Virus record (IMG/VR): IMGVR_UViG_3300024999_000046 | Length of the DNA stretch: 63,831 bases | Origin: an uncultured virus (IMG/VR IMGVR_UViG_3300024999_000046) | Taxonomy: Duplodnaviria; Heunggongvirae; Uroviricota; Caudoviricetes | Reading direction: 5' to 3' (one strand) | Shown here: positions 6,295 through 63,831 of the stretch, piece after piece | Numbering within the stretch: position 1 is the first letter of the stretch | How the letters are laid out: the number at the start of each line of letters is the position of its first letter | Translations under genes and position numbers: made by a program | Notes under the pieces: model-generated | What the model saw: the letters and a program-made list of their open reading frames with translations, nothing else | What the model was told of the DNA's origin: nothing | Databases searched by the model: none

Positions 6295-8880
6295 TTAGGA
6301 ACACTTGCTATAAAAGCAATTAGGACACGTTCGACAACCCTCTGTCATACCTAGTTCATGACCACATTCAGGGCACTTGGTTGAATCTTGATTTTCAATT
6401 TGAATCACTTTAGTCTCTTTTACTATTGCTACTTTTAAATCTTTACCCTTAATAAAGTCTCTAATAGCATTTCCAATTGCATCAGCACATGATCTAGAAT
6501 CCAATCCTTTCTCTTTTCTCATCATCATGCTTACTGGGCATCTAACAGATTTAAGTTGATCAATAATTACTTCAGGATGAATATTTGATTTAAGTGCCAA
6601 TGAAGTCATTCTTGATAATGCTTCTGTTAGTCCCTGACATCCTCCTTGTGTTGCTGATTGAGAGAATATTTCTCTAAGATTTCCTTCGTCATCGTAACAT
6701 AAGAATAACCAAAAACTACCACAACCACTAGACACTTTAAATCTTTCTGCATGTGCATATTTTAATGTTTCAGCAGGAACAATAAAATCTTGTTTGGAAA
6801 TTTCTATTTCTTCTGTTTCTCCAACACTTAATACTTGATTAGCTCTACAACCATCGCGATATACGGTCACACCCTTGATTCCATTCTTTGCTGCCATTAG
6901 ATACACATTTCCTACATCTTCAACAGTTGCATCATTTGGCAAATTCACAGTTTTGCTAATACTTAAGCATATGTATTTTTGAATTTGTGCCAATACTTTC
7001 ACATGCCATTCAGGAGAAATATCATTAGCAGTTACAAATATATCTTGAATTTCTTGTGTGAAAATATCATCTAAACCTTTAATAGATCCCTTATTTTCAT
7101 TAATTTTATCTAGTATTTCCTTTGTGTATAAGTTGTTCTCTTTTAGATAATTTTCAAAGACGCTATCCGCAACCATATATTCATCATTTTCTTTATCCCT
7201 ACGCTTATAGACCAAAGCAAATTGAGGTTCAATTCCTCCTGTTGTGTCAGCTATAAATGCAATACTTCCATTAGGAGCAATACTTGTCATACTAGAACAT
7301 CTAACTTTAAGATTTTCTTCTTCCCATTTACTACCTTTCCAAGCAGGATATATTCCTCTTTCTTTTCCTAGTTTTATATTATAATCTAAACATGTTTTCT
7401 TAATAAAACCGTACAATTCATCAACAAAATCTAAGCATTTTTGAGAGTTATAAGGTATTTTTAGTTCGTAAAGCAATTGAGCAAAACCCATTGTACCTAA
7501 TCCAATTGGTCTAATTAAGTGTGTAATTGTTTTTATTTTCTCAAGAGGAAGTTTATTCATTGTAATCATATCATCTAGGAATCTGAAAGTTAATTCAATA
7601 TTTTCTTTTAGTTTAGACCAATTTACTTTTCCTTTATCAATTACCCTTTTGAGGTTTACGGATGCTAAGTTACAACTTGAATAGGGAATATTAACATATT
7701 CATGACAGTTGTGGACTACTAAACCTTCTACTATTCCCCAATGAGTTAATGGCTCTGAGAAATCATAAACTTTTTGTTTTCCTAAATCAACAATTGATAT
7801 TACAGTTGGGTTTATAGCTTGAAAAGCTAATAAACTTTTATTTAATGTGTTTTCTGCTTCACATTTACCTCCGTTGCTTAACATAAAAATATGATTAGGG
7901 GTGCATTTAATTTTTCTATCATTGCTTAATGTCAATTCAACAACGTCTTTTTCTCCACTGTACCAAACATTACCATCAGATATATCACCGTTCGAATTAA
8001 TAACTTTAACTTCTTTTTCTGCCAATTCTTCAAATGTTTTATAGCCATCCACTGTTAATAATCTCATGTCTGAGGTAAAGCAAGGATTTCCGTATACTGT
8101 TGGATATAATTGGGGATTCATATTCCCTGCGTCCATATTCGACTGGTAACTCAAGCCGGGTTCTCCTGTTTTCCATGCACACAACATAATTTCATTCCAC
8201 AGATCAATTGCTTTAATTGTTTGATATACTAATCCATTAAATTTTAAATTCCAATCCTCATTGTTTTCTACTGCTTCAACAAATTCATCTGTAATACTAA
8301 CAGAGATATTCATATTTTTCAAATCTTCTGTATCATCCTTCGAGTGAATGAAATCAAAAATTTCGGGATGATCACAAGGCAAATCAATTTTTAATGCACC
8401 ATTTCTTTTATTTCCTTGTTTTACTCTGTTTACAACTTCATTAAAAACATGCATGAAAGAACATACTCCTGAAGCATTAGAACCAGATGACTTACATAAT
8501 GAACCTTTAGGACGAATCTTTCTCATGGAGAATCCTGCTCCACCTGACATTTGAAAAATCTTTGCACATTCTGCTACTGTAGAAAAAATACCTTCAATAT
8601 TATCTTCAATATCTACTACAAAACAAGAACTTAAAGATTGTGATGGAGTTCCAGCATTAAAAATACAAGGACTAGAAGGAATAAATTCCATATCTTTGAT
8701 TTTATTATAAAATTGTTTTATGTAATAAGGAATATCCTTTTCATTTTCAGCTTGAGCAATACTTGTTGCTATTCTTTTAGATATATCAGACCAAGAGTGT
8801 TCAATAAATTTATCATCATTATCTCTTAAATAGTATCTTTTTTCTAAAAGTTTTTCTACATTGTCGTTCATTTTAGTCAA
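6295..8880 (-). CDS. nrdJ: Class II (adenosylcobalamin-dependent) ribonucleotide reductase with intein, C-terminal TSCPD and Zn ribbon
   Basis: PSSP..FNAG, LSSCFV, GGAGF, GEPG, NP|CHE, SCNLAS, RPIGLG, SIAPNGS, SISKTVN, KGVTVYRDG; C-terminal SCADAIG and CPECG. Confidence 0.92.
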   Translation of the reverse strand: MTKMNDNVEKLLEKRYYLRDNDDKFIEHSWSDISKRIATSIAQAENEKDIPYYIKQFYNKIKDMEFIPSSPCIFNAGTPSQSLSSCFVVDIEDNIEGIFSTVAECAKIFQMSGGAGFSMRKIRPKGSLCKSSGSNASGVCSFMHVFNEVVNRVKQGNKRNGALKIDLPCDHPEIFDFIHSKDDTEDLKNMNISVSITDEFVEAVENNEDWNLKFNGLVYQTIKAIDLWNEIMLCAWKTGEPGLSYQSNMDAGNMNPQLYPTVYGNPCFTSDMRLLTVDGYKTFEELAEKEVKVINSNGDISDGNVWYSGEKDVVELTLSNDRKIKCTPNHIFMLSNGGKCEAENTLNKSLLAFQAINPTVISIVDLGKQKVYDFSEPLTHWGIVEGLVVHNCHEYVNIPYSSCNLASVNLKRVIDKGKVNWSKLKENIELTFRFLDDMITMNKLPLEKIKTITHLIRPIGLGTMGFAQLLYELKIPYNSQKCLDFVDELYGFIKKTCLDYNIKLGKERGIYPAWKGSKWEEENLKVRCSSMTSIAPNGSIAFIADTTGGIEPQFALVYKRRDKENDEYMVADSVFENYLKENNLYTKEILDKINENKGSIKGLDDIFTQEIQDIFVTANDISPEWHVKVLAQIQKYICLSISKTVNLPNDATVEDVGNVYLMAAKNGIKGVTVYRDGCRANQVLSVGETEEIEISKQDFIVPAETLKYAHAERFKVSSGCGSFWLFLCYDDEGNLREIFSQSATQGGCQGLTEALSRMTSLALKSNIHPEVIIDQLKSVRCPVSMMMRKEKGLDSRSCADAIGNAIRDFIKGKDLKVAIVKETKVIQIENQDSTKCPECGHELGMTEGCRTCPNCFYSKCS
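7708..8082 (-). mobile_element. 125-aa mini-intein in nrdJ (no endonuclease domain)
   Basis: Starts CFTSDMRLLT, block B 'CTPNHIF', block F 'VYDF', ends 'VVHN' followed by Cys; splits the NPCxE active-site motif. Confidence 0.92.
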
Positions 8881-22927: not shown

Positions 22928-22958
22928 AATAGGGAGTAGATAAAAACTACTCCCTATT
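22928..22958. terminator. 12-bp stem hairpin between YorG-like and YorH-like genes
   Basis: AATAGGGAGTAG...CTACTCCCTATT. Confidence 0.55.
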
Positions 22959-22976
22959 ATTTTATTTATGCTATTA

Positions 22977-24008
22977 TTATTCCTCGTCTTCTAACTTTTC
23001 AAGCAACTCTTCTAGGTCTTGTTTAATTCTCATTAAAAGTTGCAATTGTTTCTTTGTAGTTTCACTAACAGCAACATCCTCACCTAAATGCTCTGTTACA
23101 ATATCTGCATATTCTTCAAGTTTATCTAATTCCTCAAATTGTGCAAATAATTCTCCGATAGATTCTTTTAACTCTTCATGAGTAGGTTCTTCTCCTTCGT
23201 AAATTTCTCTTTGTGCCTTATAATCTACATCGTCTTTTTGTCCAGACATTTCTTTCTCTTTAATTAATCCTGCAATGATGGCTTGTTCTAGATTCTCTGC
23301 TGTAAAATCTTCAATAACAGAATCCGTGTAAATATTTCTACTTCGAGCAAAAAAATCGTCTGTTTCTGCTAAATAACCACTAGAATTAACAGGTGTTCCA
23401 TCATCGTCAACTCCATTGGATTTTAAATATACTACATAATCAGAGTTATTTCTCATAGGAGCAATATTTCTTTCGTCTCCTTCAATAATAAATTTTTCTT
23501 TGTCTTTATCAAATTTTTCATGACCAAGAAATAATACTGTAAAACCAAGTTTTAATAGTGTATTAACTTGAGTAAACATTTCATCTTGATATTCTTGCCA
23601 TAAGCCATATCCCTTGTTGCCTGTTTTAATACTTGTTGAACCAAATTTTTCAGTTATGTAATCTCTACACCATCTGCCCATAGTTTCCATTCCATCACAA
23701 ATAATAGTAACCTGTTCTTGCTGAACAATTTTTGCCCACTTTTTACCACCCAATGTTTTCAAATGTCCTGTGAAATCGCTCCATTTGTTAGCTTTTAGTA
23801 CAATAGCACCACTAATTCCATTCAAACCTTCCTCAAAAGGAATAAAAACTGGATTTTTAAATTTCGATGCTTGATAAGTTTTTCCCAAATTATTATAACC
23901 ATAAATAGTAATGATTTTCCCTCTTAAATCAGTAGTTATTTTGCTCACCTTGGCCTTGTCCTTGAATGTTAATTCAACTAAACTCAATAAATCATTTGAA
24001 ATTGCCAT
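22977..24008 (-). CDS. AAA_24/Sak4-like ATPase (YorG-like)
   Basis: IYGYNNLGKT, FEEG, GKGY-like 'NKGYG', FLGH, ARSR. Confidence 0.8.
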   Translation of the reverse strand: MAISNDLLSLVELTFKDKAKVSKITTDLRGKIITIYGYNNLGKTYQASKFKNPVFIPFEEGLNGISGAIVLKANKWSDFTGHLKTLGGKKWAKIVQQEQVTIICDGMETMGRWCRDYITEKFGSTSIKTGNKGYGLWQEYQDEMFTQVNTLLKLGFTVLFLGHEKFDKDKEKFIIEGDERNIAPMRNNSDYVVYLKSNGVDDDGTPVNSSGYLAETDDFFARSRNIYTDSVIEDFTAENLEQAIIAGLIKEKEMSGQKDDVDYKAQREIYEGEEPTHEELKESIGELFAQFEELDKLEEYADIVTEHLGEDVAVSETTKKQLQLLMRIKQDLEELLEKLEDEE

Positions 24009-24098
24009 TAATTAAATTCCCCCTAATATTTTATTTATATTTAATTATTATTAATTGTTGCATTAAATAAGAGAAGGGGATTTCTCCCCTATTATTGG

Positions 24099-25115
24099 TT
24101 AAAACTTGGGTCTTTCGCGCTTAGGCTTATCTCCACTTGTACCCGATGCACTTGCACCTGATTTATTGCCCATACCTTTACCCTTTTTATCTTTGCTATC
24201 AACCTCTTTGTTTTTCTCTTCTTCAATTGCGACATCACGTTCGATTTTTGCCTGTTTAATTAATTCCATATCGAATTCTTTATCTTCATCCTCTTGGATA
24301 TCTGCTCCAACGACAACTAATTCATTGATATATTCTTTATGTTCTTCTACTTTTGCTCTGCCTAAACCTCCTCCTTTTGTAGTTTTAGTGATAATGGATT
24401 TATAATTGATGTCTCCCCATACATTAAGTGTCATTCCTTCTTCAACTTGAGCAAGAATATCCTCTCCAAAATCGAACTCTTCACCATCATCATTCAAGGT
24501 GATTCCTACAACAACCTCCATAGGAATAACTTTCCCACCATAAATAGGTGTCCATCCACTTACAATAGCTCTTCCAGTGGGTTCGTCTTGTTTTGTTTCT
24601 TCCTTAACAGAAGTCACAAACATTTCAATATCAAATGTTGCCTTATAGTCCTCTGGTTTAATCGAAGAATCAATTGTAACATTACCAAAACCTAAGTCGA
24701 TATTCACCTTTGTTTTTACTTCTTCTGTTTCTTTAACCTTGAAAATGTCTTCATTAAAGCGAGGAGTGAATTCCTTCTGTCCTTGTATTCTTACCTTGGC
24801 TACATTTTCACGATCCTCATCATTTTTACACGATGCTAAAGTAAAATAATCTTCATTAATTAATTTTTGTAATGTCTCAAACGATTTCTTAACTTTGCCT
24901 TTTTTATTTTTTTCTGCTACAAAAACTTTAATTTCAATTTCTGAAAAATCACCAGTATTGATAACCAAAGATCCGTTAATATAATTTCCCTCTTTATTTT
25001 TATTTAGATTTAACTTTTGTTCCTTAACTTCTCCAACTAAAGTAATGTCGTTGATCGCTTGTCGTAATTCAGTGTTGTTTTCATTGTTTTCCATATTATG
25101 TATTCCTTCTTTCAA
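24099..25115 (-). CDS. Putative ssDNA-binding protein (YorF-like)
   Basis: Tandem OB-like segments, flexible tail ending in F; synteny. Confidence 0.6.
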   Translation of the reverse strand: MKEGIHNMENNENNTELRQAINDITLVGEVKEQKLNLNKNKEGNYINGSLVINTGDFSEIEIKVFVAEKNKKGKVKKSFETLQKLINEDYFTLASCKNDEDRENVAKVRIQGQKEFTPRFNEDIFKVKETEEVKTKVNIDLGFGNVTIDSSIKPEDYKATFDIEMFVTSVKEETKQDEPTGRAIVSGWTPIYGGKVIPMEVVVGITLNDDGEEFDFGEDILAQVEEGMTLNVWGDINYKSIITKTTKGGGLGRAKVEEHKEYINELVVVGADIQEDEDKEFDMELIKQAKIERDVAIEEEKNKEVDSKDKKGKGMGNKSGASASGTSGDKPKRERPKF

Positions 25116-25269
25116 TTATATTTATTTTATTATTTACTACACATGATCTTTAAAATATAATTGAAAGAGGTGGACTTTTATTAAATTTGATAGGTCTTCT
25201 GCATTTACCTTTATTCTTCAACCAATCAATCCTTTCTTATTAATAAATTATTTTTTTAACCTCTTAATC

Positions 25270-25299
25270 ATTATACCACACTACTCATACCAATGTCAA
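25270..25299 (-). promoter_or_regulatory. SigA-type promoter for replication operon
   Basis: TTGACA-18-TATAAT with TG. Confidence 0.7.
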
Positions 25300-25527
25300 A
25301 TATATTTATTTTACAATTCATAAAAACATTCAACATCTCATTTTCCTACATAATCACATAAAATCTCACTTTCGAGGGATTTGATATATAGAATAATAAT
25401 TTACACCTATTTAATGACCGCAAACCCTACTGTAGCAACGGTTACAGGACTATTTTAGTGATTTTTATGAGAATTAGAGTTTTTGGTCATTTTAGGCATT
25501 AACCCATAAAATCAAAATTTCTTGAGG

Positions 25528-26190
25528 TTATTTAATATCATCTTTCCAATTAGTATCCATAGCACCTACACTTCGATAATTACAAACCGACTTGCTCAAA
25601 CTAGTATAAAGTGAATCTGTCCCAACACTATTAGCAGTATAATTTGAAGCGAATTGTCCACTAATTCCAAAACTCTGAGCAGTTCCTACAGCATCAATAT
25701 TTGCACCTAAGAATAAGAATTGCCAATCATATGTGTTAGTTTGATGCTCAATCATTTCTTTAATTTTCTTTCGACTAAATTCTTTACTCTGATTTTCTTG
25801 TCCATCAGTTGTGATAACAAATATTACTTTACTTGGTTTATTGTCTTCATCTAATTTATTGAGTCTATCCCCTACGGTATTAATTGTTTTTCCAATTGCG
25901 TCTAATAATGCTGTCATACCTCTTGCTGAATATTCTTTTGTGGTCATAGGTTTTACTGTTTTAATATCTACTCCATTGTGTAGAATTTCATATTGGTCAT
26001 CAAATAGAATTGTAGTTAATAATGCCTCTCCATATTCTTGCTTTTGAGTTTCAATAAATGAGTTAAAACCTCCAATTGTATCAGCGACTAGAGAATCCAT
26101 AGAACCAGAACGATCTAAGATAAAGACGATTTCAGTTAAATTGTTTTTCATATTATTTTCCTTCTTTCTTAATTTTCTCAAGAGCATCAT
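25528..26190 (-). CDS. vWA domain protein (likely start 26151, MKNNLTEIVF)
   Basis: MIDAS DRSGS, GMTALLDA, ITTDGQEN, FLFLGAN. Confidence 0.85.
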   Translation of the reverse strand: MMLLRKLRKKENNMKNNLTEIVFILDRSGSMDSLVADTIGGFNSFIETQKQEYGEALLTTILFDDQYEILHNGVDIKTVKPMTTKEYSARGMTALLDAIGKTINTVGDRLNKLDEDNKPSKVIFVITTDGQENQSKEFSRKKIKEMIEHQTNTYDWQFLFLGANIDAVGTAQSFGISGQFASNYTANSVGTDSLYTSLSKSVCNYRSVGAMDTNWKDDIK

Positions 26191-26863
26191 TTAATTGTTT
26201 CAGAAAATGTGCAGGATCATCATTGGAATCTAGAGTTAAATTGATTGTAATATTATTAATAATGGGAGTTTTAGATTCTTTTACATTTTCTTCATCTTTC
26301 TCAACTTCTTCTACCCAATCCCATTCTTCTGGTTCATTATCTCCTAAAACATCAGAAATAACTCTTACGCAACCATTACGTTGTTTAATAGCTACAATGT
26401 CCCAATCATCATTTTCTGGAGTTAATTCTTCGTTATAATCATCTAATGATATTCCATCACCACTGTATCCTTCCGCTATATCAATTTTATCATAGAAGAT
26501 AAAATCACCTTCAAGGTCATTCAATAAAGCGAATAGAACTCCATTTCTCATTTTAAACAACATAGAACTATTTAAATCAAATTTCTTCATTTTAACATTC
26601 CTACTTTCATTATTATTCTCTTGATTTGCGTTTACTTCATTTTCTATGTATGGTTCAAAATCTTCTGGTAAGAAAAAATCACCTTTATTTGATCTTTCTG
26701 TGGATTCTAAAACGATATAATGAGAACAAATCTCTGATACGAATAAATATGGTTGGTTTTCACTCTGTGCATACTTCCACTCGATACTACCATCTAAATT
26801 TCCACAATAACTTTTTGAATGAGGAGTTACCTTCATTCCCACAATAACATGTTCTCTTTTCAA
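26153..26863 (-). CDS. Hypothetical protein
   Basis: ORF track, SD AAGGAG. Confidence 0.6.
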   Translation of the reverse strand: MKREHVIVGMKVTPHSKSYCGNLDGSIEWKYAQSENQPYLFVSEICSHYIVLESTERSNKGDFFLPEDFEPYIENEVNANQENNNESRNVKMKKFDLNSSMLFKMRNGVLFALLNDLEGDFIFYDKIDIAEGYSGDGISLDDYNEELTPENDDWDIVAIKQRNGCVRVISDVLGDNEPEEWDWVEEVEKDEENVKESKTPIINNITINLTLDSNDDPAHFLKQLNDALEKIKKEGK

Positions 26864-26893
26864 TTTATCTAACTCCTTTCTATAATTTATCCC

Positions 26894-27169
26894 TTACTGA
26901 GCAAATTGACTTAATTTCTCTCTTAATTCCAAATGTGTATTAATTTTTGCTTCTGCTTCATTTTTAACATGCTGTGTATTAACTAATTCCAATTCCAATG
27001 CATCAATTTTCTCTTGACTCTGAATTTTAGATTGATTTAACATCTCATTTGCCTTATCAATTTCCAGAATTGCTTGCTTAAACATAGATACTGCATTGTC
27101 TACTACTCCTACTGCTTTTTCAATCATCATGGAAGGTGTTAATACTACTTTTCTTTTTAAAATTGGCAT
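26894..27169 (-). CDS. Coiled-coil hypothetical protein
   Basis: ORF track. Confidence 0.6.
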   Translation of the reverse strand: MPILKRKVVLTPSMMIEKAVGVVDNAVSMFKQAILEIDKANEMLNQSKIQSQEKIDALELELVNTQHVKNEAEAKINTHLELREKLSQFAQ

Positions 27170-34038: not shown

Positions 34039-34647
34039 TTATTTATTTTTACTATCAAAATAATTGCTTAAAGATTCACCATACCATTCCCAATTATCCA
34101 CTCCTCCATTTTCTAATGCAGTTAATATTTCATCTCTATGTATAAGTTCATCATATTCTTCTTTGGAAATGGTATTTTTAGTATTTTTAACTTTAATATT
34201 GTTACCTGTAATTGCATTAATTAATTCAGATACAGAACTATTGATCTTAGATTTTACTTGGTTTTGAATATTTGAATATAAAACATTGTATAATTTATCA
34301 ATCGTTTCAGATTTGATTTCATCAATAATATTTTCCTCTGCAAGATTAAATGCATTTGTCATATCCTTACTAAATGTATCTTCATATTTCTTTTTATATT
34401 CATCTTTAATTTCTGAAATTAACTTCTGATATACCTTTTCCTTAATTTCTGTTTTAATTTCATCTCTGATTTCATATTCATCTTTATATGTAAGAGATAT
34501 CTTATTTTTCATTTCTGTTTTAACCTGATTAATTGCACTAGAGGTAATATCATCAAAAGTTGCTTCTGACATTTCTTTAATTACCCCTAACTTAATTCCC
34601 TCAAAAACCTCTTTAAAATCAAATTCAAATTTAAGTGCTGTGCTCAT
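34039..34647 (-). CDS. Hypothetical phage protein
   Basis: C-terminal 'LTALENGGVDNWEWY' motif typical of phage proteins. Confidence 0.65.
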   Translation of the reverse strand: MSTALKFEFDFKEVFEGIKLGVIKEMSEATFDDITSSAINQVKTEMKNKISLTYKDEYEIRDEIKTEIKEKVYQKLISEIKDEYKKKYEDTFSKDMTNAFNLAEENIIDEIKSETIDKLYNVLYSNIQNQVKSKINSSVSELINAITGNNIKVKNTKNTISKEEYDELIHRDEILTALENGGVDNWEWYGESLSNYFDSKNK

Positions 34648-55730: not shown

Positions 55731-56423
55731 TTACAATAAAGTATGATTTTTGATTAATAAATTCTTATTCTTTGATATTAAACGGTCATATTCTCTACTA
55801 GTCCTGCCTGTTTGCTTAATTGTCTTTTCATAACCATATAATCCTAGTTGCAAGCTATTTTCTATCCTGACTTCTAAAGAATGTTCATCCGTAATTCCTT
55901 GTGTTTTCCAGTAATCTTGGAGATAAACAATATTGCCTATTCCAGCCCTTATATTGTGATCTTGATTCCATACATCGAAAAATGTATTCTTAGGCAAAGA
56001 ACAATACTTTATAGCTCTCTCACGATGCGTAGGAATAAATCTATTGTTGAGTTGGAATAATCCCATGTCTATTGAATGGTTAGTATTATGATTTATTGCT
56101 TTTGGATTAAATCTACTTTCCTGATACATAATTGATAAAACCATATCATAAGATAAATTATTTTTTACACAAAGTTCATAAACAAGATTTTGATATTTTT
56201 CAGATAATGCAATTTCATAATTTGGTTTTATATTTGTTTCATTAATTAGAATATTTATCTCTTTCGGTAATATGTATACCTCTCTAAATTTTTCAAGAAT
56301 ATTTGAATTAGTAATGTTTATATGGTTTATGCTTGATAAATCTTTTGGATTTTCCTTAATGATAACCCCTTGACTAATTACTAAAGAACACAATACCATT
56401 GGAACAATAAATTTCATCCTCAT
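55731..56423 (-). CDS. Lytic transglycosylase (SLT domain) with N-terminal signal/anchor
   Basis: IMYQESRFNPKA, DMGLFQLN, NIRAG. Confidence 0.8.
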   Translation of the reverse strand: MRMKFIVPMVLCSLVISQGVIIKENPKDLSSINHINITNSNILEKFREVYILPKEINILINETNIKPNYEIALSEKYQNLVYELCVKNNLSYDMVLSIMYQESRFNPKAINHNTNHSIDMGLFQLNNRFIPTHRERAIKYCSLPKNTFFDVWNQDHNIRAGIGNIVYLQDYWKTQGITDEHSLEVRIENSLQLGLYGYEKTIKQTGRTSREYDRLISKNKNLLIKNHTLL

Positions 56424-56478
56424 CTAAACACTCTTTTCTAAATATTATTTTAAGATTTAACAACTAGGAGGAAGGGGT

Positions 56479-56913
56479 TTACACCCCAACTTTACGCATC
56501 TCTCTGTAATCAGTAATAGCACTTTTAGTTCCATTAAAATCAAACATAGGAGAATTAATTGTTCTTTCCCTAATTTCTATGTGTTTAAATGGACAAGATT
56601 TGATATTGCCCATCTTATTCTCTTTTCTTAAAACTTCTAACATATCAACATTTTCAATATGGAAGGTAATTACAAATTTTATTTTCATTCCCTTATCTTG
56701 AAGAGACTTCAATTTTATTTCAGCATCTAATTTGTCCGTATATGTATAGTATCCATTTGTAAGTTGTTCGGAGTAAGAATAGATATTCTTCCCACTTTGT
56801 TTATCATATGAAACTGAATTGACCCCAACATAATTTCCTTCACTGTCTTTAAGTGCAAATACTTTTAATTCTGTCATTCCATCTTCTCCTCTATAATTTT
56901 TTAGTGAAACCAA
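56479..56913 (-). CDS. Hypothetical protein (likely start 56877, MTELK)
   Basis: ORF track; SD GAGGAG. Confidence 0.6.
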   Translation of the reverse strand: MVSLKNYRGEDGMTELKVFALKDSEGNYVGVNSVSYDKQSGKNIYSYSEQLTNGYYTYTDKLDAEIKLKSLQDKGMKIKFVITFHIENVDMLEVLRKENKMGNIKSCPFKHIEIRERTINSPMFDFNGTKSAITDYREMRKVGV

Positions 56914-56941
56914 ACGTTTGATCCTTTCTAAGCTTGTTTTA

Positions 56942-56955
56942 GGAACGTATATTCG
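56942..56955 (-). promoter_or_regulatory. Putative LexA/DinR SOS box downstream of a SigA promoter (56972-57000)
   Basis: CGAATATACGTTCC vs Firmicute consensus CGAAC-N4-GTTCG; promoter TTGCTA-17-GATAAT. Confidence 0.5.
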
Positions 56956-57100
56956 CCCTTTGCCTAATTACATTATCCCACTTTGTCTACAAAATAGCAA
57001 AACAAAAATTAATCTTTTATAACCATTCTTTCGACAATATATCTTAAAATACTATATAATTATTTTAATATTATCACACCCTTTTAATTTCAATGGATTG

Positions 57101-57134
57101 AGTCTATAGTCCCATTAACTTGGGACTATAGACT
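57101..57134. terminator. Perfect 14-bp stem overlapping the repressor stop codon
   Basis: AGTCTATAGTCCCA-ttaact-TGGGACTATAGACT. Confidence 0.65.
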
Positions 57135-58116
57135 GTGTTTGTTTGTATGTTTCATACATTTCTTTTAATCCTTGCCATCCCCTTTCATCTAATTGTAAAT
57201 CTCTAAATAATTGTCTAAAGTTTTCTGATGTCAATTCGCCAACTTCATTTTCTTTCTTTAAGCATCTGTCTAATAATCCAGATTGAAATACTAAAGTAGG
57301 ATTTAAGAATTTAATTCCAGTATATTGTCTAAAATTCTTAAATCTTGCACCAATGTTTCCTACAGTTATCCTTTCTTCAGTATTGTTCTTTCTTCCGATT
57401 GTACGTAAAATATATGGAGTATCTTTAGTTGGTAAAATAGCAAATCTACCATCATCTAAACCATTTAATTTATGATAAGTATCTTCCAAACAAGCCATTT
57501 GTAAAATCTCCATAGTTCTAGGATCTACAGTTATCGGTCTTGATTGAGGAAATAAGATTTCACCGTAAGGATCTCTAGTAACAATAATTGTATTTGATTC
57601 GGGAATAAGATCAGTCTTTTTAATATTTCTTAATTCTTCAAAAGTATGATCTTTAATTGGTCTTCCCCTTACAGTCTCAAATAATAGTGCCACAACCGAC
57701 TTATCAGCGTAATTATAAAGCATGTCGCAATAATTATACATTTGTTCTCTAGTAATATAGGAAAGCTTTTGAGCTACTTGATGAATATATTTTGGTAAAT
57801 CTTCTTTTTTATCAACTAACTTAAGAACATTCATAGAACTATGGTTTTCTGCTAAACACCAGTCTAAATATTGCATAATGATTGTATAAGCAACACCTAA
57901 TGATTTAAGAGACTTTTTCTTCATTCCAATTAGTAATTCTTTTACTTCTTCATAACTAAATTTACATAAGTCTTTGTTTTTCTCATGTTCGAACCTGCTA
58001 ACGTTTTTTAAAATTGAGGTATTTGTCATCCGAGTGCTTTCATTTGGATATTTTTCATTAAGAAAACGATTCTTTTGCTCTTCATTAAATAATGTTCTTT
58101 CAATAGTGAATGACAT
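57115..58116 (-). CDS. YopR/MrpR-like master repressor (degenerate tyrosine-recombinase fold)
   Basis: Blocks FNEEQK, NKDLCKF, YLDW, YITREQ, NYADKSVVALLFE, FLNPTLVFQSG parallel SPbeta YopR as I recall it; no HxxR catalytic motif. Confidence 0.82.
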   Translation of the reverse strand: MSFTIERTLFNEEQKNRFLNEKYPNESTRMTNTSILKNVSRFEHEKNKDLCKFSYEEVKELLIGMKKKSLKSLGVAYTIIMQYLDWCLAENHSSMNVLKLVDKKEDLPKYIHQVAQKLSYITREQMYNYCDMLYNYADKSVVALLFETVRGRPIKDHTFEELRNIKKTDLIPESNTIIVTRDPYGEILFPQSRPITVDPRTMEILQMACLEDTYHKLNGLDDGRFAILPTKDTPYILRTIGRKNNTEERITVGNIGARFKNFRQYTGIKFLNPTLVFQSGLLDRCLKKENEVGELTSENFRQLFRDLQLDERGWQGLKEMYETYKQTQSIVPS

Positions 58117-59480
58117 TATGATACCTCCTCCTTATTTTCGGAATTAGAAATAATATCCTTGAAATAATCTAAAATCTTTTTAAAGGTAGATCGATTGACA
58201 TTATTTTCAATTCCAATTTTTCTCCAAATTTTATTTGACTTATTGAAGTCCAAAGATTTTAAAACTTTTAAAAACTTAGGCTTCCAATCATCACCATGCT
58301 TTTGTTTCATCAAATCTCCTAATATAATATATCCCATAAACATATTATCATGCGCCATATAAGTGTTTTCTCTGGTGTTTGATAATAATTCCAATTTAAA
58401 TTTAGAGTGATAAAGACCAATGACATTATTAAATATTTCAATAATATCATTCTCAACTTCTTCTGTTCTAATAGCTGGTTCCTCTTTAAGATCATAAATA
58501 AACTCAATTGTTTTTGATAGAGTATCAAACGTCATTAATTTGTTTTCAATTTTTAATTCTTTTTCGTTTAAGGCTATGCGATTAAACATATCGTTCTTGC
58601 TTTGGTGACTGTTTATAGCTTTAGCTACTTCCATGTTTGGATTAGCTGTATCTTTAAAATCGACCCATTCTGTTTGAATTGGGGCAGCTAAACTTTCTTG
58701 TTTTATTATTTGATTCGCACGTTCTTCTGTGACATGATGAATATATATTGACGTAACCCTATCAATTTCCGGCTTAATTTCAACTACTTTTACCATACCA
58801 CAAGTACGATTGGCCCCATCAATTATATCTACGAAAGTCGTAATATTATCTGGTTCAATTAATAAAGTTCTAGCTTTTGCGTCATATTTAAATTTCTCTT
58901 GTCCATTTATCTTTCTAATATTCCATATAATGGCGTTCGGGCAGAAAGTATTATCTAACATTGATGACGTAATTTCCGTAACTTTTTTACCACCAACATT
59001 AATTGATTCAACAATCTTATCACCACTTCTTCTTTTAAGAAGTTGTCTTTGAGTATTGGGATTGTAAGTTAATAAACCATTCCCCATATAAACCCCAACA
59101 TTTTGATAAGTGTCTTTGGTGCATAAAAATTGAGTTGCGCTAATTTGATCAACATTATGAAGTAGAATATATTTAACTTTTTCTTTTTCTAACTTTTGGT
59201 ATGTTTCAGCAAAAGACAATTCAATTTCAGTAAAATATTCATCTGGATCTATTTCTGGTTTGCGAGTATATCCATAGAGATACTTTGTAAATAAACACAA
59301 TTCTGTTTCTGATACATAAACCAAAGGAATTGCTTTAGTAAATATACCTGTTGTCCTACCCCTTGGAATCCCTCTTTCTAATAATTTAATTATTACTTGC
59401 TCTTGAACTTGATTGTCATTTGAATAATCTTCAATTACCAAATCAAGAACATCCTCAAGAACTTGACGGTCTTTTTTCAT
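58116..59480 (-). CDS. YopQ-like DndB/DGQHR-family protein (start reassigned to MKKDRQ)
   Basis: 'YNPNTQR', 'IIDGANRT' DGQHR-like motif; SD AAAGGAGG; translationally coupled to the YopR-like gene. Confidence 0.75.
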   Translation of the reverse strand: MKKDRQVLEDVLDLVIEDYSNDNQVQEQVIIKLLERGIPRGRTTGIFTKAIPLVYVSETELCLFTKYLYGYTRKPEIDPDEYFTEIELSFAETYQKLEKEKVKYILLHNVDQISATQFLCTKDTYQNVGVYMGNGLLTYNPNTQRQLLKRRSGDKIVESINVGGKKVTEITSSMLDNTFCPNAIIWNIRKINGQEKFKYDAKARTLLIEPDNITTFVDIIDGANRTCGMVKVVEIKPEIDRVTSIYIHHVTEERANQIIKQESLAAPIQTEWVDFKDTANPNMEVAKAINSHQSKNDMFNRIALNEKELKIENKLMTFDTLSKTIEFIYDLKEEPAIRTEEVENDIIEIFNNVIGLYHSKFKLELLSNTRENTYMAHDNMFMGYIILGDLMKQKHGDDWKPKFLKVLKSLDFNKSNKIWRKIGIENNVNRSTFKKILDYFKDIISNSENKEEVS

Positions 59481-59572
59481 AATAATTCCTCCTTTGAATA
59501 TATTAATTTTACATAGCTTTGACACAATCATGTCCACAAATAGTATATAATATTTTGCTATGTAATATTACC

Positions 59573-59601
59573 ATTATAAAACTATTATACTCAAAGGTCA
59601 A
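59573..59601 (-). promoter_or_regulatory. SigA-type promoter for the repressor operon
   Basis: TTGACC-17-TATAAT. Confidence 0.65.
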
Positions 59602-59651
59602 GAGAAATAGACATAATATATTTATTTTAGTGAAATTTATTATTAAAAATT

Positions 59652-60443
59652 TTAATAAAACATATTCTCATAAGTTTGTAACTTCATTTGTTCTTTACAC
59701 AGTAAATTGTTGATAAACATCAATAGTAAAGTTATGAAAATTATTGGCACACAAGTTATCCCAATGATAATATACAATTTTTCTATAAATTGTATATAGA
59801 TTAAAATATTGTTTCTCTCTATTAATTTTACAATGTAAGAAACTAAAGAAATTCTAACTAATACCATTAAAAGTAGACTATATATAAAGAACTTGTTTTT
59901 AACTATGGAGTTGAATAACTCAATTTGAACTGTACTATTTCTTCTCATTATTACAAATGAAATGACACATAAATACAATACTCTTGCAGGAAGACCTAAT
60001 AGAAAGTTGTAGTATACATTAGCATTAAAAAATGATATTGGTCTATCTAACAATGAGGCAATTAAGGGACAATATGAATATTCTACTAGTCCTACAATAA
60101 CGAATCCTGCTATTGTGTAGATTGCTGTCTTAAGGATTAATAAAATGTTAATGTCGTAACTGTTATTTATAACTATAAATTCCATGAGTAAAATCATAAT
60201 AATCATAGTTGAAATCATCATATTTTGCTGGGGTACAATTATTATGTATTTTAGGATATTTATCATTATGGATACTGGAAGCACAGCTAATGCAATCCAT
60301 TTTAGGCTTTTATTCCACATGTAAATGTCTAGAAGATTATTTAGTTTTAGGAATATTAGAGTTATTATTACGACGAAGGATTCTTCTGGGATTGATGTGA
60401 AGATTATGTTTAGGAAAATGTGGGGTAGGGATAGTGTTTGCAT
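59652..60443 (-). CDS. Multi-pass membrane protein, AgrC-sensor-like without kinase domain (paralog 2)
   Basis: About 7-8 hydrophobic segments, 'SIPEE' motif, no HisKA/HATPase motifs; adjacent to agrB. Confidence 0.7.
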   Translation of the reverse strand: MQTLSLPHIFLNIIFTSIPEESFVVIITLIFLKLNNLLDIYMWNKSLKWIALAVLPVSIMINILKYIIIVPQQNMMISTMIIMILLMEFIVINNSYDINILLILKTAIYTIAGFVIVGLVEYSYCPLIASLLDRPISFFNANVYYNFLLGLPARVLYLCVISFVIMRRNSTVQIELFNSIVKNKFFIYSLLLMVLVRISLVSYIVKLIERNNILIYIQFIEKLYIIIGITCVPIIFITLLLMFINNLLCKEQMKLQTYENMFY

Positions 60444-60488
60444 ATGGGTGCGCTCCTTTTTATTTTATTTAGTTAGATTGTATTTTAT

Positions 60489-61139
60489 TTAAGAATCTAA
60501 CTTTGAGTATACGATTTGTCCTATTTTACATACGCTAAACAATTCTAATAATAATCCGAAACAACTAGAAATTACAATTATTTTTAAATTAAAAAAAATG
60601 AAGACAATCATTAATATAGACCATATTAGTAAAAAATATAATGATTGCCTTTTAAGTTTTTTTATTTGCAAAATATCTATAATTCTATTGTTAGGGGTAT
60701 CCCTCGGACAATATCGAATACTTATATATAAACCAATAATTAAACATGTCATAAACAGCCACAATACGGATGATTGAGTCCAATAACAAAGAGTAAGTGA
60801 AACTACTAAAGCAGAACCTACAAATTGTGTAAAACTGACTATTATACAACCATTGTACGTATTCATATGATAACCACCAGCAGCAATAATTCTTAAGGAT
60901 GAAAATGTTAATATAATAGATAAAATTGATATTATAGAATTTAACATATTACCTACTAAAATACCTAAAATAACAGTGAAACATATTAATAAAAATCCTT
61001 TATATAAAGCACCTATTGGGAGCATCCATCCATATGTGAAGACTTCAATCTGATCTTCTACGGTTGGATATTTAGTGTTTGGTACATTCGAAGCTAACCA
61101 TTTAGCCAAATAATTTGAAACTCTTTCCACTAAACTCAT
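60489..61139 (-). CDS. agrB: AgrB peptide-processing protease
   Basis: 'EVFTYG', 'LRIIAAGGYH......C' with catalytic His/Cys, 'P.DTPN', multiple TMs. Confidence 0.92.
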   Translation of the reverse strand: MSLVERVSNYLAKWLASNVPNTKYPTVEDQIEVFTYGWMLPIGALYKGFLLICFTVILGILVGNMLNSIISILSIILTFSSLRIIAAGGYHMNTYNGCIIVSFTQFVGSALVVSLTLCYWTQSSVLWLFMTCLIIGLYISIRYCPRDTPNNRIIDILQIKKLKRQSLYFLLIWSILMIVFIFFNLKIIVISSCFGLLLELFSVCKIGQIVYSKLDS

Positions 61140-61166
61140 TAAATTATTTAATCTTCCTTTCTTTAA

Positions 61167-61940
61167 TCATGCAAATGCTACATGCTGACTTGCACTACGA
61201 TTGTAATTATTTTGATATTGGAATGTTTTCTGCTTGTTCATATTCATTAAGTATTGAACTGCTTCTTGTTCGTTCATTTTAAGATGGATAACTCCTTGAG
61301 CCTTAAGCATCGCAACTTCTACCAATAACATTATCTCTGAAGGACATTCCGATACTTTTTGAACTATCCCATTTTGACTGAGCCTCCTTTTTGACACACA
61401 GCGAATTTGTTCACAACTAATAATTGATTCTTGGGGCAATCCACAGTTTTTGGCCTCAACATGGGTAGGGAGCTTTGCCTTGGATTTTCTACTGGTGAGA
61501 GGTAAAATAATAGAAGTTGATGAGAAATGATTGCCCACATCGTTTTGTATAACTAAACATAAACGATTACCACCATATTCTGAATCAATGACATCACCCA
61601 AACCAACATAACAAAATGTTCCTCTTCGAACTTCAATGTTTTTAATTTGTTCCATATCATTGTTTACATAATTAGAGTAACCACAAGCTAAAGTTAAATC
61701 TTTTAATGAAACTCTACCTTCAGATGTATCTGCAATAATTTTAAGAAATTTAATGTCTGGATAAGAATTTATTTTCGCATTAAGTATATTAGCTAAATAA
61801 TCTGCATTAGTTTTACAATCAGCAGCAAATCCATTGGTTGTTCTATGCCCTTTTGCAGTCATAACGTAATTTGCCAATTTTTTAAAATCTTTCTTTGCGT
61901 TTTCCTCAGTAGTAACCTTTTTCATTAATTTGTTAAACAT
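61167..61940 (-). CDS. XRE-like HTH fused to MazF/PemK endoribonuclease (start reassigned to MFNKL)
   Basis: C-terminal half 'RRG...SEYGGNRLCLVIQNDVGN...PLTS..KAKLPTHVE...EQIR..SKRRL' parallels B. subtilis NdoA/MazF; N-terminal HTH-like segment; SD AAGGAG. Confidence 0.85.
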   Translation of the reverse strand: MFNKLMKKVTTEENAKKDFKKLANYVMTAKGHRTTNGFAADCKTNADYLANILNAKINSYPDIKFLKIIADTSEGRVSLKDLTLACGYSNYVNNDMEQIKNIEVRRGTFCYVGLGDVIDSEYGGNRLCLVIQNDVGNHFSSTSIILPLTSRKSKAKLPTHVEAKNCGLPQESIISCEQIRCVSKRRLSQNGIVQKVSECPSEIMLLVEVAMLKAQGVIHLKMNEQEAVQYLMNMNKQKTFQYQNNYNRSASQHVAFA

Positions 61941-62005
61941 AATAACGCATCTCCTTTTCATAATAACATATTTCATTTTCCTTGATACTTAACTTTATAT
62001 CTATA

Positions 62006-62033
62006 ATATTATCACAAATAAGAGATATGTCAA
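62006..62033 (-). promoter_or_regulatory. SigA-type promoter for HTH-MazF, agrB and membrane gene
   Basis: TTGACA-16-TAATAT with TG. Confidence 0.55.
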
Positions 62034-62057
62034 TATGTTTTATAAAATTATTTTTAA

Positions 62058-62093
62058 TTTTATAGGGGAGACTTTTTAGTCTCCCCTATAAAA
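62058..62093. terminator. Perfect 16-bp stem directly after agrD
   Basis: TTTTATAGGGGAGACT-tttt-AGTCTCCCCTATAAAA; no clear U-tract, so may be a stabiliser. Confidence 0.65.
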
Positions 62094-62102
62094 GAGTTTG
62101 TC

Positions 62103-62222
62103 CTATTTCAGACAACTAGGTTTTTTAGGCTGATAAGAAAATGCAAAAGAGAACATATGCGATGCATATAATGCGGAAGCAGACAATAAACCAGCAAGAG
62201 CAATGTACATTTTATTTTTCAT
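62103..62222 (-). CDS. agrD: AgrD-type cyclic lactone autoinducer precursor (39 aa)
   Basis: Manual: MKNKMYIALAGLLSASALYASHMFSFAFSYQPKKPSCLK; SD AAAGGAGGTG; leader + ring + YQPxxP tail typical of clostridial AgrD; near agrB. Confidence 0.9.
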   Translation of the reverse strand: MKNKMYIALAGLLSASALYASHMFSFAFSYQPKKPSCLK

Positions 62223-62268
62223 AATTTTCACCTCCTTTACTTACTTTTTTATACATAACAAATGTTTT

Positions 62269-63060
62269 CTAATCATTAAGATTATCATACATTTGATGTA
62301 CACGTTTTTCTATTCCAACTACATAATTAATCATATACCATAGAATTATTAAAAATATAGTTGGGAGACTTAAACACCATCCTATAATAAATATTTGTTC
62401 CAATATTGGTAAATTACATGTAATCAAAATATTATTATAACCTATTAATTTAACTACATAAATTAAAAAGAATATCAAAAATATTACTATAAAAATTATA
62501 ATGTGAGTTAATGTTTTGTTTTTAAAAATGATATCATATAATTTCACATTAACTTGTTCATTAACTTTAACTATAAAAAATGTGACTAATGAAAATTCTA
62601 AAATCCTGCAAGGTATTACTAATAAAAACATATATAATATATTCTCATTGAAAAAATTATATGATATTTTTAATAATGAAAATGTTAATGGCATATATAA
62701 TAGTTCTATGGAAGTGATTATTATAAATACAATCATTGTATATATAATAGTTTTGGCAATAAGTTTTCTTTCAGGATCAATCGATAATGTTTTAATAATA
62801 TAGTAAATTGTTGCACAAAATGTAATTAAAGAAATCATAGTAATCCACAATTTAGGTAAAATTATTATGTATTTAAAAACATTTATACAAACTGACATTG
62901 ATAATGAAGGAATCATGATCCATTTTATATTGTATTTCCACATTCTTATATCTAATAAGTCAAACCTTTTAAATAATATTAGCGTCATACAAGTTGCGAA
63001 TATTTCTTCGGGAAGAGAGATAAATATTGTACTTAATAAAGCATGGATTATGTTTTGCAT
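62269..63060 (-). CDS. Multi-pass membrane protein, AgrC-sensor-like without kinase domain (paralog 1)
   Basis: 263 aa like 59652..60443; shared 'S(I/L)PEE', 'LLDI.MW...KWI', 'KYIII.P', 'P.R.L'. Confidence 0.7.
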   Translation of the reverse strand: MQNIIHALLSTIFISLPEEIFATCMTLILFKRFDLLDIRMWKYNIKWIMIPSLSMSVCINVFKYIIILPKLWITMISLITFCATIYYIIKTLSIDPERKLIAKTIIYTMIVFIIITSIELLYMPLTFSLLKISYNFFNENILYMFLLVIPCRILEFSLVTFFIVKVNEQVNVKLYDIIFKNKTLTHIIIFIVIFLIFFLIYVVKLIGYNNILITCNLPILEQIFIIGWCLSLPTIFLIILWYMINYVVGIEKRVHQMYDNLND

Positions 63061-63098
63061 ATGTCATTACTCCTTTTATTTTTATTATCTTTAAGATA

Positions 63099-63127
63099 AT
63101 TTTACCATATGCAAAACACCATGTCAA
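63099..63127 (-). promoter_or_regulatory. SigA-type promoter for membrane paralog 1 and agrD
   Basis: TTGACA-17-TAAAAT with TG. Confidence 0.7.
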
Positions 63128-63137
63128 TATTTATTTA

Positions 63138-63734
63138 TTAATTTATATTAAGAAATTTAACTGAATGATAGACAATTATAAAAGCAAATAATCTACATAA
63201 AATATCACCTATTGATAAAATTGATGTTCCGAAATCGAATACATCTGATAAAAATATCAATCTTGTTGTATGGCCTCCAAGAACATAAAATTCACTAAAC
63301 TTAGAGGCATTCATAATCATATCATACTGTGTGTAACCAGTTGAATAAGACACCGATGGAAAAATTGGCATGAGATTATTGTTAAAATGCATTACAATCT
63401 TATTCAATGTAAAGCCACACAAGAGACTACAACAAGCAATAATATACTCCTTATACTTCTCATGCCTAAACAAAACATCAAGTCCCAGAATCATGTATGA
63501 TCCTAATATAGCATTTTTTATTATGTGTTGATATTGAAGAAAATAGTAATTTTGATTCATTATCGTGTATTGTAGGTAGACATAGAATATTGACATAATT
63601 ATTACTGGATAGATGCTCCATATTTTTAGTATTGGTTTTATATTGTACGATTCTTTATGTATTTGGAGTTTTCCTAGTTTTATGTATAGTTTTGTTTTTA
63701 TAAGAATCAGACTAAATATTAATGTCTCAACCAC
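63138..63734 (-). CDS. DUF5317-like membrane protein
   Basis: 'G..LN..V...N...MP', 'T.L.FLSD', 'LSIGD'. Confidence 0.7.
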   Translation of the reverse strand: MVETLIFSLILIKTKLYIKLGKLQIHKESYNIKPILKIWSIYPVIIMSIFYVYLQYTIMNQNYYFLQYQHIIKNAILGSYMILGLDVLFRHEKYKEYIIACCSLLCGFTLNKIVMHFNNNLMPIFPSVSYSTGYTQYDMIMNASKFSEFYVLGGHTTRLIFLSDVFDFGTSILSIGDILCRLFAFIIVYHSVKFLNIN

Positions 63735-63831
63735 TTACTGGCACTTCCTCTTTATCTATTTTTCTTAATTCACCAAAATCATAATTAATTGTATATTCGC
63801 GACACTCTAATTTCTTTTCTTCTATGTATAT
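63727..63831 (-). CDS. 3' end of an upstream gene (partial)
   Basis: Open frame ...IHRREKKLECREYTINYDFGELRKIDKEEVPVSG* overlapping the DUF5317 start. Confidence 0.45.
   Translation of the reverse strand: MYIEEKKLECREYTINYDFGELRKIDKEEVPVSG

Follow-up and report, generated by a model that had tools for sequence, protein, structure and literature searches.

We analysed a 63,831-nucleotide stretch of DNA from an uncultured virus of the Caudoviricetes (IMG/VR record IMGVR_UViG_3300024999_000046; the whole stretch is called the window below). Towards its end lies a cassette of genes for an Agr-type peptide system, followed directly by homologs of yopQ and yopR of phage SPbeta. An initial annotation had listed nine co-oriented elements in this region, namely genes for a DUF5317 protein, two membrane proteins, AgrD, AgrB, a helix-turn-helix (HTH)-MazF protein and YopQ- and YopR/MrpR-like proteins, and a hairpin. 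All nine were found where it had placed them, on the minus strand. They are given here in the direction of reading, with the promoter-like sites and a second hairpin (aa, amino acids; ORF, open reading frame):

63138-63734, minus strand: DUF5317 membrane protein, 198 aa, first gene of the cassette (PF17248, E 4e-16, 59.8 bits against a cut-off of 25)
63099-63127, minus strand: promoter-like site TTGACA-17-TAAAAT with TG, before memA (consensus scan, 11/12 matches)
62269-63060, minus strand: MemA, 263 aa, seven-helix membrane protein of a new family
62103-62231, minus strand: agrD, 42-aa ORF (TIGR04223, 19.5 bits against a cut-off of 19, E 8e-4)
62058-62093, minus strand: terminator-like hairpin with a 16-bp stem, 3' of agrD (sequence inspection)
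62005-62033, minus strand: promoter-like site TTGACA-16-TAATAT, TG-extended, before HTH::MazF (consensus scan)
61167-61976, minus strand: XRE-type HTH::MazF fusion, 269-aa ORF (PemK, E 5e-19; structure model)
60489-61139, minus strand: AgrB peptidase/cyclase, 216 aa (PF04647, E 6e-24, 84.9 bits against a cut-off of 23)
59652-60443, minus strand: MemB, 263 aa, paralog of MemA (38% identity, E 1e-45)
59573-59601, minus strand: promoter-like site TTGACC-17-TATAAT, before the yopQ homolog (consensus scan, 11/12 matches)
58116-59537, minus strand: YopQ (SroE)-like protein of the DndB/ParB type, 473 aa (DndB, phrog_5732, tblastn)
57115-58116, minus strand: YopR/MrpR-like homolog of the master repressor, 333 aa, tyrosine-recombinase fold (MrpR_N_CB, E 1e-18)
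57101-57134, no strand assigned (the scan reports +): hairpin with a 14-bp stem at the end of the yopR homolog (terminator scan)

The gene identities are borne out by hidden Markov model searches, in which DUF5317, AgrD, AgrB, PemK/MazF, DndB and MrpR_N_CB all pass their thresholds. Three transcription units are likely, predicted from consensus matches and not from mapped transcripts: memA-agrD, perhaps with DUF5317 in front; HTH::MazF-agrB-memB; and yopQ-yopR. The hairpin that ends agrD was not called by the automatic terminator scan. A stem is present at this place in all 10 aligned relatives (described below), and the stem sequences differ, which amounts to compensatory changes. The -35 element TTGACA of the HTH::MazF promoter is kept in nine of the 10 aligned relatives and reads TTGCAT in the other (L013). 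Ribosome-binding sites point to the ATG at 62222 as the true start of agrD, giving a precursor of 39 aa, and to the ATG at 61940 as the probable start of the fusion protein; both agree with the relatives. A perfect A/T palindrome (window 62041-62064, 10-bp arms and a 4-bp spacer) lies 7 bp upstream of the -35 element of HTH::MazF and is a possible operator. L007, L008 and L011 have palindromes that resemble it without matching it exactly, and in five other relatives none was found; A/T-rich palindromes before the -35 element show no consistent conservation. As for a repeated operator of the SPBRE kind, the window holds no repeated 11-mer and positions 56400-63831 hold no convincing repeat family.

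The peptide genes have the features expected of an Agr system. In AgrB, the residues His91 and Cys98 (H-x6-C) are invariant across 16 phage and bacterial homologs, and we take them to be the catalytic His/Cys pair of staphylococcal AgrB. All 11 aligned phage AgrD sequences have a hydrophobic leader and a serine (cysteine in L007) with four variable residues after it, then, at the fifth position from the serine, an invariant glutamine in the motif (H/Y/N)Q(P/S), and a conserved C-terminal tail that ends in an invariant cysteine. By analogy with the five-residue ring of Clostridium perfringens and with known serine-lactone autoinducing peptides (AIPs), the peptide encoded in the window would be a Ser-Phe-Ala-Phe-Ser lactone, a five-residue ring that precedes a YQPKKP tail. 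Serine-lactone AIPs, AIPs that lack a tail and the five-residue C. perfringens ring are all described in a primer on the subject (PMC12312760). The window AgrB, searched by tblastn, has no match in 50,697 deposited phage genomes. At the level of sequence, the peptide system appears intact, and the peptide would presumably be made.

The gene that follows the agrD hairpin encodes two domains in one chain. Residues 117-220 are a PemK/MazF domain (PF02452, 68.9 bits, E 5e-19); a profile search against the Protein Data Bank (PDB) retrieves MazF of the Bacillus EndoA/YdcE type (E 1.5e-29 to 3e-29), and residues 114-231 of the structure model match MazF with a Z score of 16.2 and a root-mean-square deviation (rmsd) of 1.8-1.9. 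The fusion keeps an arginine and a threonine that align with Arg25 and Thr48 of EndoA, presumably its catalytic residues. The proposal that the phage carries its own MazF is thus upheld by sequence and by structure. The N-terminal HTH, also read by the initial annotation, has no support at the level of sequence: Pfam gives no match in the window protein and weak, unrelated matches to four families among 10 members, and the PDB profile search finds nothing. The structure model, however, matches an XRE-type HTH. Residues 30-100 form five helices (predicted local distance difference test score, pLDDT, 85-93), and residues 26-103 align to an XRE regulator with a best Z of 9.5 (rmsd 2.7 over 74 residues), then to CapH (9.3), another XRE regulator (9.1), C.AhdI (8.9), SinR (8.8) and ImmR (8.7), the top matches covering 61-74 residues. 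About three quarters of the 50 structural matches listed are of the XRE/Cro type, and HigA and HipB are among them. The model supports an XRE/Cro-C1 HTH fold at the N-terminus, a putative DNA-binding domain. The C-terminal 45 residues (window 61167-61300) are predicted to be disordered (pLDDT about 33), yet all 11 homologs share an invariant Asn-Asn and a final Ala there. E. coli MazF is reportedly modulated by a pentapeptide rich in asparagine, and by analogy this tail could be a built-in regulator.

The two membrane proteins of the initial annotation are both present, but that description has been refined: they are paralogs within one new family, here called Mem, which accompanies agrD in bacteria as well. 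MemA has no match in Pfam, NCBIfam, PHROG or PADLOC. Its model (pLDDT 81, predicted template modelling score 0.74) consists of seven long helices, and hydropathy and the positive-inside rule suggest that the N-terminus lies outside and the C-terminus inside. No Pfam family fits 25 diverse Mem members, the PDB sequence profile gives only chance-level matches to G-protein-coupled receptor fusions, and the ESM Atlas returns only unnamed clusters. Conserved polar residues lie in or near the helices (Pro17-Glu18 in helix 1, Asp37, Lys103, Glu119, Arg152, Lys204 and Asn245), and per-column entropy laid on the hydropathy topology shows no clear extracellular hot spot. Among 1.84 billion representatives, a profile of 17 phage Mem proteins picked out 220 that belong to the family (E up to 1e-3). 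Those listed, 150 in number, measure 56-326 aa, so none of them is fused to a kinase; a search among longer proteins gave no Mem match.

Downstream of the cassette, the YopQ homolog matches DndB (32.5 bits against a cut-off of 29.1), phrog_5732 (E 4e-60) and, by tblastn, SPBc2 yopQ (24.8% identity over 83% of the query, E 1e-16). Its gene adjoins the yopR homolog with a 1-base overlap. The product of the latter matches MrpR_N_CB (68.3 bits against a cut-off of 27, E 1e-18), phrog_5830 (E 5e-51), PDB entry 9rd5 (E 3e-21) and, over residues 9-310, the solved YopR/MrpR structures 8bj6 and 8a0a (E 2e-10 to 3e-10), with MrpR_C_cat at 22.8 bits, under its cut-off of 27. It is a candidate master repressor of the tyrosine-recombinase-like kind. 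The corresponding SPbeta operon is described as adjoining aimP, controlling lysogeny and being kept in arbitrium SPbeta-like phages, with YopR as the repressor (Brady et al., PMC8612738), and MrpR/YopR is described as a repressor with a recombinase fold (Kohm et al., PMC10516654). The order in SPBc2 is yopK(aimR)-yopL(aimP)-stem-loop-yopM-yopN-yopO(HTH)-yopP(integrase-like)-yopQ-yopR-stem-loop, and the order here is memA-agrD-stem-loop/promoter-HTH::MazF-agrB-memB-yopQ-yopR-stem-loop, the hairpin that closes the yopR homolog standing in the same position as the SPBc2 stem-loop after yopR. The cassette therefore occupies the place of arbitrium upstream of yopQ-yopR on the SPBc2 map, as the initial annotation had stated.

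The same arrangement is found in related viruses. Searches of IMG/VR by YopQ, the fusion protein and an AgrB alignment yielded 20 distinct viral contigs with the cassette; most belong to one metagenome series and four come from other samples, so they are not independent. One locus (L012) is the same contig as L003 and was counted once, and six loci from the fusion query (L015-L020), which match in the MazF domain only and have no other cassette genes, were left out. All 20 contigs have MemA, agrD, the fusion and agrB (full-length fusion homologs in 19), 19 have DUF5317 (absent from L108) and 12 have MemB; L001 keeps a remnant of memB, broken by the insertion of a 537-aa ORF. In 19 of the 20 a stand-alone MazF (126-143 aa) is encoded upstream of the cassette (not found in L114). 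The yopQ and/or yopR homologs follow the cassette in 19 contigs, and the remaining one (L106) ends before that point; the linkage to the repressor genes on which the initial annotation had made its proposal depend is thus seen in related phages. Two layouts occur, with agrB after the fusion gene in most contigs and before DUF5317 in five (L007, L008, L113, L117 and L118). A gene set that recurs in the same order in 20 further viral contigs is more than a chance arrangement. Related HNH/homing-endonuclease genes stand at differing points in and around the cassette (L004:3886-5622, L001:7094-8707, L008:3931-5532, L010:6590-8143 and window 2-1273). The two homing endonucleases that were scanned belong to phrog_4538 and phrog_559, and one such insertion is that which splits memB in L001.

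We compared pairwise protein identities among 11 of these phages, partly from the same metagenome series (55 pairs, Spearman correlation). The identities of MemA, AgrB and the fusion co-vary, with rho of 0.81-0.87 (0.87 for memA-agrB and 0.83 for memA-HTH::MazF); AgrD follows these three at 0.53-0.59 and DUF5317 partly, at 0.32-0.51. YopQ and YopR go together (0.87), and the correlation of the cassette genes with them is -0.22 to -0.03. MemB, compared on 15 pairs, tracks YopR (0.68) and YopQ (0.49) rather than agrD. The phages L004 and L007 illustrate this: their YopQ proteins are 96% identical, while identity is 38% for AgrD, 31% for MemA, 24% for AgrB and 36% for the fusion. The cassette block behaves as expected of a matched set of signal, sensor and effector that is swapped between phages, which is supportive and not decisive. 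Agr specificity groups and arbitrium variants likewise diversify as exchangeable blocks.

The Mem family also occurs in bacteria, where it keeps the same company. We surveyed 28 loci from bacteria and metagenome-assembled genomes (MAGs), including the harmless, cultivable species Ruminiclostridium cellobioparum and R. hungatei (loci L022, L023 and L030) and Clostridia MAGs, several of them from one MAG series. In 26 of the 28, an agrD-like ORF, detected with a profile built from phage AgrD, starts no more than a few tens of bases behind mem. AgrB stands immediately upstream of mem in 14. Just downstream, a profile search finds a convergent XRE (HTH_3) gene encoding 114-141 aa in 14 loci, and Pfam adds one of 214 aa in L047. 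The five tested genomes whose mem-agrD lacks a neighbouring AgrB all carry AgrB elsewhere, and at two such distant loci (L053 and L056) AgrB is followed by a convergent XRE gene, without mem. Genomes with mem-agrD also hold canonical AgrB adjoining AgrC-type kinases. DUF5317 was found in two of five bacterial genomes, as single copies away from the mem loci, and a literature search found no description of it. In its full form the bacterial module (L022-L049; for instance L030:4577-7584) comprises a divergent TM2/zinc-ribbon gene, agrB, a Mem of about 315 aa, agrD and a convergent XRE HTH_3 gene. Pairs of mem and agrD also stand alone, and L045 has two tandem mem genes. A phmmer match of the L047 XRE protein to the phage fusion was not confirmed by BLASTP. 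From gene content and order, a recurring kinase-less module of AgrB, Mem, AgrD and XRE is recognisable in bacteria. Since the Mem family partners agrD in kinase-less bacterial agr loci that have an XRE regulator, the phage appears to have captured the whole four-part module, and not AgrBD alone, with the XRE fold joined to MazF.

The receptors of the classical systems were looked for and not found. The initial annotation had reported no aimR-like tetratricopeptide repeat (TPR) gene, AgrC kinase or AgrA in the window, and the search agrees: TPR/AimR, HATPase_c_5 (AgrC) and LytTR (AgrA) have no Pfam or PHROG match in the scanned window ORFs, every unscanned ORF being shorter than 160 aa. Five related phage records were examined as well, three rated 100% complete (227, 230 and 167 kb) and two partial (121 and 150 kb). 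HATPase_c_5 is absent from all five, LytTR gives nothing above its cut-off (one sub-threshold fragment of 16.3 bits in G005), and SPbeta AimR as a query, a test of low sensitivity, has no match. In L004 and L014 the sequence before the cassette, followed for up to 10 kb, has no ORF of the size of AimR and holds only small ORFs, PTH2, DUF5662, DUF1385, MazF and an endonuclease. The initial annotation had named a complete arbitrium locus just outside the window as counting against its proposal; in the relatives no AimR was found, within these 10 kb or in the five records.

To our knowledge, few systems of phage-phage communication have been described, and arbitrium is the model. The cassette resembles arbitrium in lying directly upstream of yopQ-yopR, in its sequence of a candidate receptor gene, a small peptide gene, a hairpin and an operon that ends in a YopR/MrpR repressor, in its link to MazF, and in being a swappable specificity module beside conserved repressor genes. 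It differs in that no AimR-like TPR protein was detected and in that its peptide would come from an AgrD-type precursor made into a cyclic lactone by AgrB, whereas arbitrium uses a linear hexapeptide. The candidate sensor is in the membrane, so that sensing would be extracellular, whereas arbitrium senses its peptide after import. The MazF is phage-encoded and fused to an HTH, whereas that of arbitrium is a host protein. With canonical agrBDCA of Staphylococcus and Clostridium the cassette shares an AgrB with the conserved His/Cys pair, an AgrD with a five-residue ring motif and conserved C-terminal tail, and a hypervariable, co-diversifying block. Unlike agrBDCA, it has no detected AgrC kinase or AgrA, has instead a seven-helix protein (250-326 aa, with no kinase fusion among those listed) and an XRE-type HTH, and is ordered mem-agrD with agrB before or after.

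The closest precedents are likewise partial. Phage phiCDHM1 of Clostridioides difficile, a phiCD119-like myovirus, is reported to carry host-derived agr3 genes for AgrB, AgrD and an AgrC kinase; the cassette shares agrB and agrD with it, but is kinase-less, belongs to another phage lineage and has a fixed place at the repressor locus. The agrBD genes of C. perfringens and agrD1B1 of C. difficile are described as having no adjacent agrCA (PMC12312760). Taking the loci of these species as the primer describes them, the cassette and its bacterial counterparts share agrBD without agrCA, and differ by the seven-helix protein between agrB and agrD and the convergent XRE gene. MazEF and XRE-type antitoxins offer a MazF domain near B. 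subtilis EndoA and an HTH fold like that of HigA- and HipB-type antitoxins; here, by contrast, HTH and MazF form one chain, no MazE is recognised nearby and the gene lies inside an agr cassette. Phage agr genes (phiCDHM1, with AgrC), arbitrium and kinase-less clostridial agr loci are thus already known. What appear to be new are the joint occurrence of such elements at the switch locus of SPbeta, Mem as a fixed partner of agrD, and the XRE::MazF fusion. Our literature searches found no description of an agr cassette at the SPbeta switch or of a seven-helix/XRE partner of agrBD, which is not proof of absence.

The account that we favour, tentatively, is that the cassette is a self-contained, kinase-less Agr-type peptide signalling system that feeds an SPbeta-type lysis-lysogeny switch. 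AgrB would cut and cyclise AgrD into a five-residue serine-lactone ring, and the peptide would build up outside the cells as infections multiply. MemA, encoded directly before agrD, would bind it and relay the signal to XRE-HTH::MazF, whose gene comes straight after the agrD hairpin and has a promoter of its own. MazF RNase activity, DNA binding by the HTH, or both, would then tip the downstream YopQ/YopR(MrpR) system towards lysogeny. This last step parallels phi3T, in which AimX and YosL are described as inactivating host MazF, and MazF activity as promoting lysogeny once AimP shuts off aimX (Zamora-Caballero et al., PMC10769878), a report that also supports the role of MazF in the arbitrium decision invoked by the initial annotation. 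From the genes and their order we infer the production of the peptide, its reception by MemA, the coupling to the MazF fusion and the effect on lysogeny, and, on the evolutionary side, that the cassette replaced arbitrium. A receptor borne by the cassette is favoured because specificity changes with the cassette between phages that are otherwise nearly identical. A wider claim, which we regard as doubtful, is that clostridial SPbeta-like phages count infections by a cyclic lactone, which a kinase-less MemA senses outside the cell and passes on to XRE::MazF, and that Mem and XRE are the missing receptor pathway of kinase-less clostridial agr loci; phages would then have a means of communication that stands in the place of arbitrium and has no mechanistic relation to it. 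The cultured Clostridium phage c-st is of interest here (record 22935-27129; L051:5183-9377): its MazF, which has 220 aa and a C-terminal extension, is encoded two genes ahead of the yopQ/yopR homologs, and no agrB, agrD or Mem was found there, so a MazF beside the repressor pair would be older or wider than the agr cassette. In c-st a 218-aa unassigned protein is encoded directly before yopQ/yopR, and a P22 antirepressor-like gene precedes the MazF and this protein; CST025 was considered as a Mem homolog and ruled out (hhalign probability 0.3%).

Several results weigh against the signalling account. MemA is a candidate AIP receptor or AgrD maturation factor; the receptor role is drawn from context, and the tight mem-agrD adjacency suits a maturation or export factor equally well. 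The MemA model has no structural relative among solved or viral structures, AgrC sensors included, the best values being E 2.5 for Foldseek against the PDB, Z 7.5 in the wide VIA search (generic helices) and E 0.39 in BFVD, and hhalign of Mem with nine AgrC-type N-termini from mem-bearing genomes gives probabilities of 1% (A3) and 13% (A4), which are not significant. The fusion HTH shows no detectable relation to the XRE neighbours in bacteria (hhalign probability 0.9%). The agrD and agrB genes lie in separate predicted transcription units, and genes that are linked will co-vary between related genomes even when no function connects them. No MazE antitoxin was recognised among the 11 small ORFs upstream of the relatives' free MazF, and in this phage itself the receptor search reaches to the window end at 63831. 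Finally, the large serine recombinase of the complete 167-kb relative (G006) fits a temperate life, but none was found by PF07508 in the relatives of 227 and 230 kb, also rated complete (G002 and G003); these may integrate differently or persist as plasmid prophages.

The strongest rival, possible although we think it on balance unlikely, is that the cassette serves signal production only. AgrB and Mem, the latter as a leader peptidase or exporter in the manner of MroQ, would make an AIP that AgrC- or VirS-type kinases of the host read, either informing the phage indirectly or manipulating or jamming host quorum sensing, and MazF would be a separate matter. In S. aureus, AIP maturation is described as needing a second membrane protease, MroQ, and the exporter is given as unidentified (PMC12312760). 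Mem is tied to agrD in 26 of the 28 bacterial loci even where AgrB is elsewhere, its genomes also carry canonical AgrB beside AgrC-type kinases, it has no detectable similarity to AgrC sensors, and phiCDHM1 is a reported precedent for host-derived agr genes in a phage. As to the protease part, two phage and 25 other Mem members have no Pfam match to the CPBP/Abi family or to another protease family at E up to 0.1-1, CPBP/Abi proteins do not appear among the structural matches listed, and the Mem alignment has no invariant histidine, which argues against a CPBP-type metalloprotease and excludes little else. It is difficult to see why phages with 96% identical YopQ should have very different AgrD, AgrB and MemA if the signal is read by a host protein, which is not passed on together with the cassette. 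The second paralog, MemB, is retained in 12 of the 20 contigs, and the XRE partner is conserved beside the module in bacteria and inside it in phages. Genomic context does not by itself separate a receptor from a maturation or export factor.

An improbable alternative is a peptide-gated toxin module, in which a secreted peptide for kin recognition would adjust the activity of the toxins XRE::MazF and free MazF. The module would serve superinfection exclusion, abortive infection or prophage addiction and have no part in the lysis-lysogeny decision. The relatives do have a pair of MazF genes with each cassette, the MazF families are classed by PHROGs under moron/host-takeover, the XRE HTH is a common antitoxin module (HigA and HipB are among the structural matches), and homing endonucleases and other accessory genes crowd the region. 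No PADLOC defence model matched the eight cassette proteins tested, however, and the position is strict: in 19 of 20 contigs the repressor pair follows immediately, as it also does in c-st. As the phi3T MazF is described as itself part of the lysogeny decision (PMC10769878), this alternative may overlap with the signalling account. It is very improbable that agrBD, the membrane proteins and MazF were merely brought together upstream of yopQ/yopR by insertion accident in a hot spot for accessory genes, as the homing-endonuclease insertions at several points and the two positions of agrB might suggest, because the same six to eight genes persist in 20 contigs despite 25-60% protein divergence, co-diversify as a block, and, in the case of agrB, mem, agrD and XRE, lie side by side on the chromosomes of bacteria as well.

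The remainder of the window describes the phage. All its large genes are on the minus strand, its G+C content is 26-32%, and it encodes a DNA polymerase III alpha subunit, RecJ, helicases of the DnaB and RecD2 types, a primase, ribonucleotide reductase, an NAD-dependent ligase and numerous HNH/homing endonucleases; it represents the early/replication arm of a large SPbeta-like phage whose host is a low-GC Firmicute. The large subunit of ribonucleotide reductase (6295-8880) contains an intein-like insert (Intein_splicing, 29.3 bits, under the cut-off) and a TSCPD domain. A 202-aa protein (34039-34647) matches at its C-terminus the T7 gp5.9 RecBCD-inhibitor family (E 1.9e-16), and a 34-aa ORF fragment (63727-63831) that runs off the window end has no match in the related loci. 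The stretch was detected solely in DNA runs from a groundwater metagenome (four runs of one study), with no RNA run among the holders. A megablast search against deposited phages gave no match, and the nearest virus record (G001) is without the cassette region. The YopQ homolog matches 30 deposited phage records, all SPbeta-like (24 Bacillus, two Geobacillus, one Psychrobacillus and three Clostridium c-st/D-1873). The same query against 399 scored genomes of sampled Clostridia gave three distant matches only and no pointer to the host.

If the signalling account is true, a chemically distinct second signal operates at an SPbeta-type repressor locus, which would mean that this locus accepts interchangeable communication modules, and phage signalling would extend to anaerobic Clostridia. 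A phage-borne MazF would be tied directly to the decision, complementing the host-MazF mechanism of phi3T. The Mem family is also a candidate to fill an old gap, either the sensing of peptides by clostridial agrBD loci that lack AgrC/AgrA or the trimming and export of AIPs, and this gap is approachable in the cultivable Ruminiclostridium species that bear the module.

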